The notes below the pieces were generated by a model. That model searched no databases. It saw nothing but the letters and a program-made list of their open reading frames with translations, and was not told the origin of the DNA. 64,000 nucleotides of DNA, taken from contig CALRFU010000002.1 in the NCBI GenBank assembly GCA_943356775.1, positions 48,524 to 112,523 of the forward strand, given 5' to 3'. Shown here one piece after another: positions 60,987 through 64,000 of this stretch (positions are counted from its first letter, which is position 1; each line of letters opens with the position of its first letter). The position numbers were made by a program, and so were the translations under genes. This stretch comes from Candidatus Nomurabacteria bacterium. Lineage in GTDB: Bacteria > Patescibacteriota > Minisyncoccia > Phycocordibacterales > UBA2100.

Positions 60987-61079
60987 GTATGCACCGGCGG
61001 TAAAACTCGCGCCACAGGCGGCCACAGCGAGCCGTGGGGGGTGTGGCAATGACGCCTCTGGGGCTGGTAGAATAGGCCT

Positions 61080-61247
61080 ATGCAAAAGGATCAGCAATCC
61101 GGAAAAGAGTTGTACGAGGAATGGGATAAGCACGATAAGAGCGGCGTGCTGGGCGCAGCGAGACATTTCACCCAATCGTTATCGCCTGAGGAACGGCAAC
61201 GACTATTCGAGTATGACCATCAGCGGCAGAAAGGGGTGGTCGCGTGA
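61080..61247 (+). CDS. small ORF (55 aa) followed by a strong terminator, not in the ORF track
   Basis: MQKDQQSGKELYEEWDKHDKSGVLGAARHFTQSLSPEERQRLFEYDHQRQKGVVA. A terminator lies immediately downstream. Confidence 0.35.
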   Translation: MQKDQQSGKELYEEWDKHDKSGVLGAARHFTQSLSPEERQRLFEYDHQRQKGVVA

Positions 61248-61263
61248 TCACGAAACACACTGA

Positions 61264-61292
61264 GGGCCGCGCGGTGGCGGCCCTCTTTTTTT
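61264..61292 (+). terminator. rho-independent terminator
   Basis: GGGCCGC-GCGGUG-GCGGCCC followed by UCUUUUUUUU. Confidence 0.7.
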
Positions 61293-61357
61293 AAAGATGG
61301 TAGGGTGTCGGGACCGGTCGGGGGTACTGTCCCTATCCACAGCGCTTTCTTGCTTCA

Positions 61358-61385
61358 TTGACTATTCACCCCAAAAGTATATATT
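61358..61385 (+). promoter_or_regulatory. sigma70-like promoter for the NYN-domain gene
   Basis: TTGACT, a 16-nt spacer, then TATATT. GGAG lies 5 nt before the ATG at 61460. Confidence 0.3.
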
Positions 61386-61459
61386 GTACTCATACACGCC
61401 CCAGCCGACCGCAAGGTTCGCTGGGGTTTTTCGTTGCCTATTGCTACAATGCGGAGCAA

Positions 61460-62077
61460 ATGCAAACGATCCTGCTCATAGACGGAGAGAACATTAAGGG
61501 CAAAATCCGGTCCGTCTTCAAGGATGCCAGTAAGGCAAAGCCGGTTTGGCACGAATACGATTTCCGAGGACTTTTGGATAAGGTTCTGGAGGGCATCAAA
61601 ATAGACCGGAAGGTATTTTATTTTGCGCGTATCAAAGAGCACGAGCAGAGTAAAGAGAAATCAAAACAACTCATCGAGGACCAGCGACAGTTCAAGACGC
61701 ATTTGGAGAAGCAGGGCTTCGAGGTGATCTTGAGCGGACGAGTGCGCGGGCAGTTGGAAGACGGGCAGGGCGGTAAAAAGATGCTGGTCTTCAAAGAGAA
61801 GGGCGTGGACGTGAAGATCGCCGTTGATATGGTCAGCTTATCGTGCGACAAGAAGGTCAAAGAGATAATCCTCGGCAGTTCCGACAGCGATCTTCAACCG
61901 GCGATCAAAGAAGTACGGGATCGGCAGGTCAGTTGCGTATATCTTGGGTTTGAAGCGCAACCGAACAAGGGAATGACGTTTACGACGAACAGGACTATTT
62001 TGATACGAAACTCCGAACTATTTGAGTTTGAAAAAATACAGCCAACACTCATTTCGACTGATCCGCCTCGCCATTAG
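61460..62077 (+). CDS. NYN-domain (LabA-like, PIN-like) protein
   Basis: MQTILLIDGENIKGK... and GVDVKIAVDMVSL...IILGSSDSDLQPAIKEV match NYN/LabA acidic-residue motifs. The 3' end overlaps the RT 3' end by 29 nt on the opposite strand. Confidence 0.75.
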   Translation: MQTILLIDGENIKGKIRSVFKDASKAKPVWHEYDFRGLLDKVLEGIKIDRKVFYFARIKEHEQSKEKSKQLIEDQRQFKTHLEKQGFEVILSGRVRGQLEDGQGGKKMLVFKEKGVDVKIAVDMVSLSCDKKVKEIILGSSDSDLQPAIKEVRDRQVSCVYLGFEAQPNKGMTFTTNRTILIRNSELFEFEKIQPTLISTDPPRH

Positions 62078-63083
62078 GTTCCCGCATCCTTTCTACCTCA
62101 TCCTCGACAACCTGTCGCAGCTTTTTGGTATTCCCATGGCTCATCAATCCAAAGTAGGATTGCACCGTTTCTTCCTTACCCTGTCGCGCTTTGATACCGC
62201 GAAACATTCTGTTTTTCGTAGTTGTACGCAAAACTCGATGGTCGAGAAAATGCACCCAGCCCAGAAAATCCACGCCTGACGCAAGGGTGCGCAGAGAAAT
62301 CTTTTGTGGGTGGAGCGTTAGTCGCAACTCGTCCCGTAAAAAATCTCCCATACGCGACAACACCTCTTGTAGCCATTTTCTATCAGTCGAGAGCAACACG
62401 AAATCATCGGCGTAGCGGACGTAATGCTTTACTCGAAGCTGTTGCTTCACAAAATGGTCAAACTCGTTCATATACACATTGACCAAGAGCTGGGAGGTGA
62501 GGTTGCCGAGAGGGAGCCCTACACTTCTTTCGCTTGAGTGGAAGCTCTCGATGATTTGGGATAGAAGCCAGAGAATGTCGTCATTTTGGATATAGCGTCG
62601 CAGTATCTCCATCAAACGGGCGTGGTCTACCGAGGCAAAGAACTTCCGTATGTCGCATTTGAGCACCCAAACCGTGCGCGTGTGATTATGAGATACCTGA
62701 TAGGCAAAGGAGCGAAAGCAATTTACCGCCTTGTGCCCGCCTTTATTTCTTCTGCACGAGTAAGAGTGGGCAATGAAAGTCCTATCAAAAAATGGGTAGA
62801 GCTTGCGGTAGAGCGCGTGATGCAGCAAACGGTCTCTCACGCTCGCCTTATGTATGTTCCGTGGCTTTGGGTCGGAAATGTTGAACGCCTCATACGGAGA
62901 ATGTTTGTATGTTTTGGCAGCAAGGTCTCGATGGAGTGAAAGAATGTGGTACATCAGATTGTGCTCGAACTTTTGGACATCGGTACGGGACCGCTTGCCC
63001 CGCACAAACTCTTTCCATGCCTCAAGCAGATTTTCGACGGAAATGATACTCTCGTAGGTATGAACGAGTTGGATGCGGGCCAT
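62049..63083 (-). CDS. diversity-generating retroelement (DGR) reverse transcriptase
   Basis: RT motifs 1-7 are present (PRNIHKASVRDRLLHHALY, KCDIRKFFASVDHARL, YADD in VRYADDFVLL). Motif 4 reads LPLGNLTSQLLVNVYMNEFD, the DGR-diagnostic GxxxSQ, in place of the group II/retron QGxxxSP. 344 aa with no maturase or endonuclease domains. Start MARIQLVHTY; ATG at 63081-63083 verified. Confidence 0.85.
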   Translation of the reverse strand: MARIQLVHTYESIISVENLLEAWKEFVRGKRSRTDVQKFEHNLMYHILSLHRDLAAKTYKHSPYEAFNISDPKPRNIHKASVRDRLLHHALYRKLYPFFDRTFIAHSYSCRRNKGGHKAVNCFRSFAYQVSHNHTRTVWVLKCDIRKFFASVDHARLMEILRRYIQNDDILWLLSQIIESFHSSERSVGLPLGNLTSQLLVNVYMNEFDHFVKQQLRVKHYVRYADDFVLLSTDRKWLQEVLSRMGDFLRDELRLTLHPQKISLRTLASGVDFLGWVHFLDHRVLRTTTKNRMFRGIKARQGKEETVQSYFGLMSHGNTKKLRQVVEDEVERMREPNGEADQSK

Positions 63084-63096
63084 ATCATTGAAGCGT

Positions 63097-63110
63097 CCCC
63101 CCCCCCCCCC
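63097..63110. repeat. C14 homopolymer (G14 on the RT strand) between the divergent RT and avd starts
   Basis: Read directly. 14 consecutive C lie 14 nt upstream of the RT start codon on the minus strand and 12 nt upstream of the annotated avd TTG on the plus strand. Confidence 0.9.
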
Positions 63111-63121
63111 GACTTCTGCCT

Positions 63122-63478
63122 TTGTTACAGAAGGTAAAAAATGCGTACCTGTTGTGGTACGGCTACTATCAGGCCATTCCGAAAGTCCACAGGCATTCTC
63201 TTGGTCAGCGAGTTGATACATTGTTTGTTGAGATCATGGAAACGATAGCGGCGGCGAGTTTTCTTGTACGGGAAGAAAAACGACCTTACGTGCGTCTCGC
63301 CATCAGAAAAACAGATACCTTGAAAGTGCTTTTGATGCTGCTGTGGGAAACGAAGTCATTGGACAACAAAAAGTATGCCGCACTTTCGGTGAAAGTAGAA
63401 GAAATCGGCAAGATGCTCGGCGGCTGGAATGGACAGCTTACAAAACTCGACCCCGCCAAGAAGCGGGGTGAGAAGTGA
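63122..63478 (+). CDS. avd: Avd-like accessory variability determinant (four-helix-bundle / 23S rRNA-IVS protein family)
   Basis: WYGYYQAIPKVHRH aligns to bAvd YLYPIAQSIPRKHG. KVEEIGKMLGGWNGQLTKL aligns to IAEVGRILGSWIARVNRK. The start is uncertain: TTG at 63122, with about 15 aa missing relative to bAvd. It is on the opposite strand to RT and TR. Confidence 0.75.
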   Translation: MLQKVKNAYLLWYGYYQAIPKVHRHSLGQRVDTLFVEIMETIAAASFLVREEKRPYVRLAIRKTDTLKVLLMLLWETKSLDNKKYAALSVKVEEIGKMLGGWNGQLTKLDPAKKRGEK

Positions 63479-63484
63479 AGCGAG

Positions 63485-63620
63485 TTGCGAAGCGAGCCGC
63501 AGGGTTGTTGTCGTTCCAGTCGTTGTCGAGCCAGTTCCAGTTCACCACCACCTCGCCACCGTTCTCGATGAGGTACGGGACGTTGAGGTTGCCGTCGCGG
63601 TTCTGCACGATTGTACAAAA
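63485..63620 (-). repeat. DGR template repeat (TR), adenines on the minus strand; the 3' end carries an IMH*-like GC-rich element
   Basis: Plus 63485-63538 matches plus 63947-64000 at 45 of 54 positions. Eight of the 9 mismatches are T in this copy on the plus strand (A on the minus strand) against A/G/C in the other copy. On the minus strand the TR reads GTG AAC TGG AAC TGG CTC GAC AAC GAC TGG AAC GAC AAC AAC CCT GCG GCT CGC TTC GCA, rich in AAC codons. The far (5') boundary is not determinable because the VR is cut by the window edge. Confidence 0.65.
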
Positions 63621-63842
63621 TGCCGTCCGTTGCACTGCCCATTGAATACTCGCCGAGCTGTATCGTATTCGGCATCGGTAAATGCCATAGCACTTTGTAC
63701 CAAGTATCTTCAACTTTTTGTGAGCTTCGCATATGCCACTCCATCTCAAACCGTGGTCGGAGATGCTCTCGGCGTATGGACGCTGGGTTCGGTAGCGGGA
63801 AACCGTAATCGCCCGCGTATTCACCTACTTCCGCTTCGCATT

Positions 63843-63888
63843 GTATCAAAACAAAACCCCGCGCTGCCATATTTCAGACAACGCGGGG
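63843..63888 (-). terminator. rho-independent terminator of the DGR target gene
   Basis: Minus strand CCCCGCG-N18-CGCGGGG followed by UUUUGUUUUG, about 55 nt after the target stop. Confidence 0.6.
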
Positions 63889-63941
63889 CAAAGGGCAAGG
63901 TGCAAAGGGTCAAACAAGACCCAAGGCACCAAGCACCGAGT

Positions 63942-64000
63942 TCAACTTGCGAAGCGAGCCGCAGGGTAGTAAGCGAACCAGTCGTAGGCGAGCCAGTCCC
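63942..64000 (-). CDS. DGR target (variable) protein, C-terminal end only; the gene continues beyond the window edge
   Basis: The minus strand reads ...D W L A Y D W F A Y Y P A A R F A S stop (TGA at 63942-63944). This is in frame with the TR-encoded N W L D N D W N D N N P A A R F A. Codon changes N->D/Y/F and D->A all arise from A->N substitutions at first/second positions of AAC/GAC codons. Confidence 0.65.
   Translation of the reverse strand, partial: DWLAYDWFAYYPAARFAS
63947..64000 (-). repeat. DGR variable repeat (VR), partial, with IMH-like 20-mer CCCTGCGGCTCGCTTCGCAA at its 3' end
   Basis: See the TR entry. The 20-nt GC-rich block is identical in TR and VR. Flanking sequence diverges immediately 3' of it. 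Confidence 0.65.

Follow-up and report, generated by a model that had tools for sequence, protein, structure and literature searches.

Candidate Phyla Radiation (CPR) bacteria account for a very large share of the natural diversity-generating retroelements (DGRs). To our knowledge, all that is known mechanistically about priming in DGRs comes from one phage element, in which a spacer lies between the template repeat (TR) and the gene for the reverse transcriptase (RT). In this paper we analyse a DGR at the end of a 64,000-nucleotide stretch of DNA from a Candidatus Nomurabacteria bacterium (GenBank assembly GCA_943356775.1, contig CALRFU010000002.1, positions 48,524 to 112,523 of the forward strand). 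This whole stretch is referred to as the window, and all coordinates are given within it. In this element the accessory gene, avd, is inverted and lies between TR and RT.

The DGR of the Bordetella phage BPP-1 has the order mtd-avd-TR-brt, and its RNA is represented in Rfam by RF03022 (Phage_DGR), the RT-10 motif of Weinberg et al. 2017. According to the cryo-EM work of Handa et al. (bioRxiv 10.1101/2023.10.23.563531) and the BPP-1 sequence, an Avd-binding hairpin formed by spacer nucleotides Sp3-33 stands directly after TR. Further along the spacer, Sp47-56, which ends in the priming adenosine A56, pairs with TR117-129, and two nucleotides on Sp59-70 pairs with a segment just upstream of TR, an element known as the cPRT Stop. 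These are followed, in order, by a short hairpin, the adenosines A80/A81, a single-stranded 'thumb ring' and a hairpin bound by bRT. The papers that we searched assume a trailing (3') structured RNA for DGRs.

In CPR bacteria, Wu et al. (NAR 2018, PMC5758913) catalogued an architecture named B3, that is, TR-(avd)-RT with avd on the reverse strand, which comprises 90% of their CPR DGRs, and Roux et al. 2021 (PMC8144416) describe DGR RT clade 2 as restricted to Patescibacteria. The inverted avd of the window is therefore no discovery in itself: it is the catalogued CPR norm, and the locus is one more instance of it. The consequence at the RNA level could matter, as the CPR layout leaves no room for a TR-RT spacer of the phage type. 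Comparison of the window with related loci identifies a conserved, structured leader upstream of TR and a terminator-like hairpin downstream of it. The most likely mechanism, and a new lead, is that an RNA composed of leader, TR and hairpin would carry the functions of the phage spacer on the 5' side of TR.

Gene content and layout of the locus

The region is a complete DGR core (Table 1). The RT begins with the residues MARIQLVHTYE at 63083, not at 63084 as in the original prediction, which, small corrections aside, placed all parts correctly. The protein is 32% identical to the Bordetella phage bRT over 307 aa (E 2e-52) and has the (I/L)GxLTSQL motif of the DGR clade of RTs in the form PLGNLTSQL, which aligns with PIGSLTSQL of bRT. 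The avd product is a member of the Pfam family PF22296 (bAvd), with 44.4 bits against a gathering score of 40. It gives a single match in NCBIfam, to NF033474 (DivGenRetAVD), at 59.7 bits and so under the cut-off of 80, and its BLASTP alignment with bAvd is weak (E 0.002) and involves the C-terminus alone. The start of avd is ambiguous. At the position homologous to the TTG at window 63122 many relatives have CTT TTA CCA, with neither a canonical start codon nor a Shine-Dalgarno sequence, and the conserved TGG(C/T)AAAA(G/T) opposite the avd start may be a promoter element instead of coding sequence.

A direct repeat of 54 nt joins 63485-63538 with 63947-64000, the window edge, and eight of its nine differences fall at TR adenines. 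The full variable region (VR) and the full target gene were taken from contig L081, whose encoded RT is identical. In the 129-nt alignment of TR with this VR, 23 of the 24 mismatches are at TR adenines, and VR ends 3 nt before the stop of a 194-aa target open reading frame (ORF), the product of which has no Pfam domain.

TR, RT and target all read on the minus strand, and only avd, placed between the first two, reads on the plus strand, which confirms the inversion originally predicted. The interval from TR to RT is 401 nt, and 6 nt separate the end of TR from the stop codon of avd (63476-63478). A better Avd-like ORF was sought on the minus strand and none was found; the candidate, a 128-aa ORF at 63438-63824, has no Pfam or NCBIfam match.

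At E<1e-20 the window RT has over 8000 homologues. The best 120, which were listed, are 65-93% identical to it, and all of those with a named source are Patescibacteria/CPR lineages (Paceibacterota, Parcubacteria, Patescibacteria). The genome collection contains 536 relatives, and 80 loci of species-representative genomes were analysed, with RTs 58-78% identical to that of the window over the best tblastn segment. Their titles mostly name CPR lineages, the others being four uncultured Gammaproteobacteria and several entries called just 'bacterium'. For six of the 80, nothing upstream of RT is available. Of the remaining 74, 73 have avd directly upstream of RT on the opposite strand and tail-to-tail with TR; the median gap between avd and RT is 37.5 nt. 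TR is on the RT strand, with a median distance of 8 nt (mode 6) between its end and the stop codon of avd, and VR is a median of 340 nt upstream of TR. Another 30 loci with the inverted-avd layout were found in a metagenome collection scanned with a 17-mer of the leader, and were thus picked solely by the leader motif.

The window locus has both properties of B3, the core order TR-(avd)-RT with a reverse avd and the association with CPR/Patescibacteria. The layout had been called atypical, which holds relative to the Bordetella phage alone; when the cassette is set against the CPR classification of Wu et al. (PMC5758913), as had been proposed, an inverted avd between TR and RT turns out to be the rule.

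Structured leader and the flanks of TR

The interval of approximately 340 nt between VR and TR was aligned for 59 loci. It contains, in order, a block of CTTKG-like repeats, the terminator of the target gene, a TGnTAnAAT-like box and approximately 230 nt that are conserved up to TR; a TGnTAnnnT sequence lies 200-300 nt upstream of TR in 40 of 60 loci. Folding of 40 loci with RNAalifold gave 54 pairs in seven helices, 48 of them with compensatory changes. In this structure 95.2% of the leader cells are paired, compared to 36-50% when the partners are slid by 1-3 columns, and 456 cells are compensatory, compared to 71-120 in slid and 127 in shuffled alignments (0/500). The covariation score is 0.69, against at most 0.19 in the slid controls. 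R1, a covariance model of the 3' half of the leader, matches the 64-kb window once (63607-63723, minus strand; 106 bits, E 9e-21). Each related locus likewise has a single match, which invariably directly precedes TR and is on the same strand as TR; this holds for more than 10 loci outside the seed as well. The leader has no match in Rfam. A coding role for the leader was considered too and rejected, as reading frames upstream of TR stay open for a median of 106 nt, and the region has frequent indels and compensatory changes.

Two segments of the leader are complementary to sequences that border TR. The 3' strand of helix H5 abuts the first TR nucleotide, and its 5' strand, 110 nt upstream, is separated from it by H6 and H7. 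Six nucleotides upstream of the 5' strand of H5 is a highly conserved, single-stranded motif with the consensus AAAUGAAGA (window 63716->63707, AAGUUGAAGA), which is complementary to the 9 nt after TR, consensus UCUUCAUUU (window CUUCACUU, 63480->63473). The duplex between motif and junction has a mean length of 7.1 in cognate pairs versus 5.9+-0.14 with permuted partners (z = 8.1; 0/3000), and three control segments have no such cognate advantage (z = -1.6, -0.8 and 0.7). Compensatory pairs of motif and junction occur in L044 (AAAUAAACA/UGUUUAUUU), L075 (AAAGAUGAAA/UUUCAUCUUU), L071 (UCAUGAAGA/UCUUCAUGA), L038 (AACGAAGA/UCUUCGUU) and L003 (AAAUGAAGC/GCUUCAUUU). Taken together, the motif:junction duplex and H5 imply that a single uninterrupted leader strand pairs first with the sequence 3' of TR and next with that 5' of TR, so that TR forms a loop.

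Downstream of TR, the hairpin proper (63469->63450) and the U-tract that follows it (63469->63440 together) overlap the last 13 or so codons of avd on the other strand. The hairpin and U-tract have the pattern of a rho-independent terminator, a GC-rich hairpin and a U-tract on the transcribed strand. The hairpin also resembles the Avd-binding stem-loop. In relatives the hairpin and U-run start approximately 12-16 nt past TR on the TR strand, and a terminator-like element lies 16-45 nt after TR in most loci. By a strict definition, a hairpin and T-run within 85 nt of the TR end is present in 49 of 60 loci on the TR strand and in none of the 60 on the avd strand; control windows inside RT were positive in 13 of 300 cases. 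As a like motif also follows the target gene (63889->63856) and RT (62060->62039), the host appears to use a hairpin and T-run as terminator.

The conserved C-terminal tail of Avd, KQNSPxKxGEK*, is the complement of the hairpin and U-run, and lineages that read this region in another frame have kept the hairpin and not the peptide. In a codon-level analysis of 62 avd genes, identity is as expected for codons 1-98; only the last 20 or so codons exceed expectation, most strongly at the complement of the U-tract. A second terminator-like hairpin and T-run (CGUACCACAACAGGUACG CAUUUUUUAC) is located at 63144-63161 on the minus strand, inside the 5' end of avd and approximately 60 nt upstream of the RT start. 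It is probably fortuitous, because avd codons 1-20 have no excess codon identity in relatives.

Table 1. Features of the DGR locus in the window. Arrows give the reading direction on the minus strand.
Feature	Position	Strand	Basis and remarks
DGR reverse transcriptase gene (344 aa)	62049..63083	-	Pfam RVT_1 2.3e-24; homology to BPP-1 bRT
avd (accessory variability determinant), 118 aa, TTG start	63122..63478	+	PF22296 bAvd; convergent with TR, divergent from RT
Template repeat (TR), 129 nt	63485..63613, sense 63613->63485	-	TR/VR comparison
Target gene 3' end; stop codon 63944->63942; VR from 63947 upward, cut by window end	63942..64000	-	repeat search and contig L081
Structured non-coding leader RNA, conserved, abutting the TR 5' end	63614..63833	-	comparative folding, covariance model
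Leader helices H1/H2	63825->63791	-	RNAalifold
Leader helices H3/H4	63778->63730	-	RNAalifold
Leader single-stranded motif AAAAAGUUGAAGAUACUUGG	63719->63700	-	alignment
Leader helix H5, 12 bp	63700->63689 with 63624->63613	-	RNAalifold
Leader hairpin H6	63686->63671	-	RNAalifold
Leader hairpin H7	63658->63637	-	RNAalifold
Junction strand CUUCACUU, immediately 3' of TR; includes complement of avd stop codon	63473..63480	-	pairs with leader motif
GC hairpin ACCCCGC-UUCUUG-GCGGGGU (extendable to ~10 bp, one bulge), then CGAGUUUUGU	63440..63469	-	pattern scan; terminator-like
Extended -10-like box TGATACAAT, candidate promoter of leader-TR RNA	63840..63848	-	conserved TAnAAT block; predicted function
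Intrinsic-terminator-like hairpin (13 pairs) and UUUGUUUUGA, 3' of target gene	63846..63889	-	pattern scan; position kept in relatives
Homopolymer tract, C14 (+) / G14 on RT-sense strand	63097..63110		in 38-nt divergent avd-RT intergenic region
Terminator-like hairpin and T-run at RT stop codon	62039..62060	-	pattern scan; putative function

The metagenome scan that yielded the 30 further B3 cassettes also found leaders that stand apart from the other DGR genes. About half of the 17-mer matches with enough flank lacked a nearby avd or RT, and most of those had no covariance-model match, as would be the case for chance 17-mers. Contigs of transcript size that might reveal RNA ends were not among the matches, all contigs being longer than 1 kb. 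Approximately ten, however, are genuine leader instances (67-117 bits) without avd or RT within the stored flanks; such solo modules include L112, L126, L136, L146 (10457-10700, leader-oriented), L147, L152 and L163. They retain target, leader, TR, junction, hairpin and U-tract, and diverge 0-65 nt after the U-tract. Where VR is in view, the TR/VR mismatches lie at adenines in 21 of 21 cases in L147 and 17 of 19 in L136/L146, and L146 has two leader-TR units approximately 1.8 kb apart. This suggests that the template RNAs of solo modules are served in trans by a distant RT-Avd pair.

The sole exception among the 74 genome loci, L078, is also informative. Its whole target-leader-TR-(avd) module is inverted relative to RT, with the R1 match on the flipped strand, which indicates that TR need not be co-transcribed with RT.

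Two further features lie next to the subjects described above. The CTTKG-like block (GAACUCGGUGCUUGGUGCCUUGGGUCUUGUUUGACCCUUUGCACCUUGCCCUUUGCC; 63890-63941, minus strand) separates the target stop from its terminator. It is non-coding, yet its sub-blocks are 80-90% conserved across approximately 59 loci, and TRF reports a weak 7-nt period at 63886-63914; it lies beside VR and is a possible candidate for a retrohoming or target-recognition element. At the other end of the cassette, a gene for a NYN-domain protein (PF01936, 1e-15) at 61460-62077 on the plus strand converges on RT, and the two 3' ends overlap by 29 nt (62049-62077).

Models of the template RNA and of RT-avd expression

The locus is a standard CPR (Paceibacterota-type) B3 DGR, and we consider it probable that its template is an autonomous leader-TR-hairpin RNA with spacer functions on its 5' side. 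The template RNA would be a transcript of approximately 395 nt that starts near 63833, just after the target terminator, ends near 63440 at the U-tract, and acts in trans with RT and Avd. The divergent 38-nt region with the homopolymer tract would drive RT and avd independently of this RNA. The leader would take over the functions of the 140-nt spacer of BPP-1: its strand would clamp the 3' flank of TR as an analogue of the primer strand, with a candidate priming adenosine near 63707, and would then clamp the 5' flank as an analogue of the cDNA stop, with TR looped out. Only a hairpin of the Avd-binding type would be left 3' of TR.

The clamping of both TR ends by the leader, together with the terminator-like hairpin inside avd, amounts to a concrete model of cDNA priming and stopping. 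It also delimits a minimal RNA (window 63833->63440) with which the system could be reconstituted or engineered and, if true, would explain how several targets or solo TR modules share one RT-Avd pair. More tentatively, and with somewhat less confidence than we place in the reading of this one locus, we propose that Patescibacteria DGRs in general employ an autonomous, terminator-bounded, non-coding template RNA of approximately 400 nt, with 5'-shifted spacer functions (primer strand, cDNA-stop duplex and RT-contacting hairpins), that this explains both B3 and the solo modules, and that RT and avd are perhaps gated by the tract.

Several points weigh against an autonomous leader-TR-hairpin RNA. 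Its start, its 3' end and its termination are predictions from sequence; the hairpin could be leaky, with RT still translated from read-through transcripts, and the priming nucleotide is a guess. Folded as a single sequence, 63833->63440 (394 nt) is no more stable than shuffled versions (z = -0.85), the signal coming from the comparative analysis alone. A generic sigma-70 scan of 61900-64000 that required both hexamers returned no site. The leader-junction duplex of the window itself is imperfect, with 5 contiguous bp, or 8 bp with one bulged U. Finally, Handa et al. (10.1101/2023.10.23.563531) report putative stop duplexes in CPR DGRs from 40 nt upstream and 100 nt downstream of TR, which is a pairing scheme other than the leader clamp.

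The original prediction left two alternatives, a cDNA-priming spacer very different from the characterised one or a regulatory coupling by antisense pairing. The first is now the better supported, in that spacer-like elements appear to lie 5' of TR. The second, in which convergent transcription makes the avd mRNA overlap the TR RNA and the supplies of Avd and of template RNA are linked through antisense pairing or transcriptional interference, is possible but unlikely, and could coexist with an autonomous template RNA. The tail-to-tail arrangement of TR and avd is kept with a gap of 0-25 nt in nearly all loci, the flipped L078 included, and a TR RNA ending at 63440 would overlap avd by 39 nt, the overlap being at least of this size. 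It was also correctly foreseen that avd transcripts could run antisense into TR: on the avd-sense strand, terminator-like motifs across TR and leader are at background level, so avd transcripts would continue antisense to the template RNA. However, tight gene packing is usual in small CPR genomes, which makes proximity weak evidence, and the hairpin and U-tract are kept in solo modules that have lost avd. The hairpin thus does not exist for the sake of avd.

It is far less probable that TR and RT form one co-transcript in which the approximately 400 nt of antisense avd serve as a functional spacer that binds RT-Avd and gives the priming adenosine, as had been suggested. Such an RNA would suit a layout in which TR and RT are co-oriented with avd alone between them. 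The first 45-70 nt or so 3' of TR are indeed constrained at the RNA level, including the hairpin of the Avd-binding type, and for many DGRs, those of CPR among them, Handa et al. (10.1101/2023.10.23.563531) predict elements similar to the spacer in the 100 nt that follow TR. Beyond that segment, however, the interval is an avd gene and not a non-coding, RNA-constrained spacer of approximately 140 nt, and codons 1-98 are without synonymous constraint. A terminator-like hairpin and U-tract would intervene after TR in most loci; the solo modules end 0-65 nt past the U-tract and have diversified VRs all the same; and the TR module of L078 is flipped relative to RT. Rfam gave no match at E<=1 in window 61000-64000 and no RF03022 (Phage_DGR) match at E<=0.1 in 7 related CPR loci, while the same model matches the BPP-1 TR-brt spacer (2750-2882) with 104.7 bits. 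A scan of all column pairs for covarying helices between distal antisense avd and the leader or TR flank gave none apart from a weak, wobble-rich 6-bp candidate, GGGCAG:CUGUCC, which was not adopted because it competes with helix H7 and falls beyond the U-tract. By eye, the 3' strand of the stem could plausibly pair with the end of TR (AACUCUC:GAGAGUU), but a duplication of CUCUC accounts for this.

The last alternative, that the inversion is an assembly artefact or an invertible segment within the population, has a negligible probability and is excluded for practical purposes, as it has in its favour a general possibility alone (the sole assembly-level difference being a homopolymer of 14 versus 13) and has against it the same orientation in 73 of 74 loci from independent assemblies, in 30 metagenome loci and in an independent contig with identical RT, as well as a whole-window repeat search (seed 10, minimum length 30) that lists no inverted-repeat pair near avd.

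The start codons of avd and RT are 38 nt apart in the window. A simple-sequence tract occupies the interval between them in 70 of 74 loci: it is a poly-G of 7-14 on the RT-sense strand in 62, the window having the longest at 14, and (GA)n, (CT)n, (TTCG)n or (GGCT)n in the remaining 8. L081 is identical to the window over 2198 nt except for its tract of 13 instead of 14. A check of seven contigs with an identical RT, from another lineage, found G10 in all of them. In 28 loci, TGG(C/T)AA-like and TAnnnT-like hexamers flank the tract with spacers that cluster at 16-18 nt, as judged by eye and by a regular-expression count, and in 17 of these 28 the -10-like box ends 7 nt before the RT start codon. 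We speculate that the RT mRNA is leaderless and that the tract serves as a promoter spacer, although the window's own hexamers are poor. The tract could be a slippage-prone promoter spacer or a 5'-UTR/RNA element, that is, a phase-variable switch of the DGR. In L056 a run of Ns stands directly after the poly-G tract upstream of RT; this break in the assembly is consistent with a tract that is hard to sequence or heterogeneous.

Comparison with known systems

In phase-variable surface genes of Neisseria, Haemophilus and Bordetella, homopolymer or dinucleotide tracts lie between promoter elements. The avd-RT tract shares with such contingency-tract promoters a short repeat that keeps its place within a short interval between divergent genes, with length and unit that vary between lineages. 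It differs in that the length differences seen here are between sequences or lineages (13 versus 14), whereas G10 is constant in the seven contigs of one lineage.

With the CPR B3 DGRs of Wu et al. the locus shares gene order, orientation, one adjacent target whose 3' end carries VR, adenine-specific TR/VR differences and a target without a recognisable domain, and there is no difference in gene architecture. The papers that we consulted make no mention of the structured leader, of the terminator-like hairpin within avd, of the leader-junction duplex or of the intergenic tract. Likewise, we found no description of an upstream or permuted DGR RNA in the literature searched.

The BPP-1 DGR has in common with the window locus a homologous RT (32% identity), an Avd-family protein and the signature of adenine mutagenesis. 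In both, a stem-loop stands immediately 3' of TR; that of the window (63469->63450), which has counterparts in most relatives, corresponds to the phage-type element of approximately 9-11 bp and is putatively Avd-binding. In both, one strand of RNA pairs with the 3' end of TR and, a few nucleotides later, with a segment just 5' of TR, and beyond this clamp strand come a short hairpin, conserved adenosines (GAA...), a conserved single-stranded stretch and another hairpin. The order in the CPR leader is clamp strand 1, clamp strand 2 (H5), hairpin H6, the conserved GAAUACGAUACA stretch and hairpin H7.

The differences lie in where these parts are placed. In the window avd is inverted and follows TR instead of preceding it, there is no non-coding TR-RT spacer and no RF03022 match, and the clamp strand with its hairpins is 5' of TR and not 3'. 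The 3' hairpin is succeeded by a U-tract, the phage has nothing that corresponds to the additional 5' domain (H1-H4), and the linker between the clamp segments is 6 nt, compared to 2 nt in the phage. The duplexes at both TR flanks (H5 and motif:junction) covary and are phage-like in topology, but with the strand 5' of TR; their roles in priming and stopping are putative.

If the ends of the phage DGR RNA were joined and the molecule opened between the Avd-binding hairpin and the primer strand, the CPR arrangement would result, and we infer from topology and covariation that the CPR DGR RNA is apparently a circular permutation of that of the phage. Such a permutation would account for a convergent avd directly behind TR.

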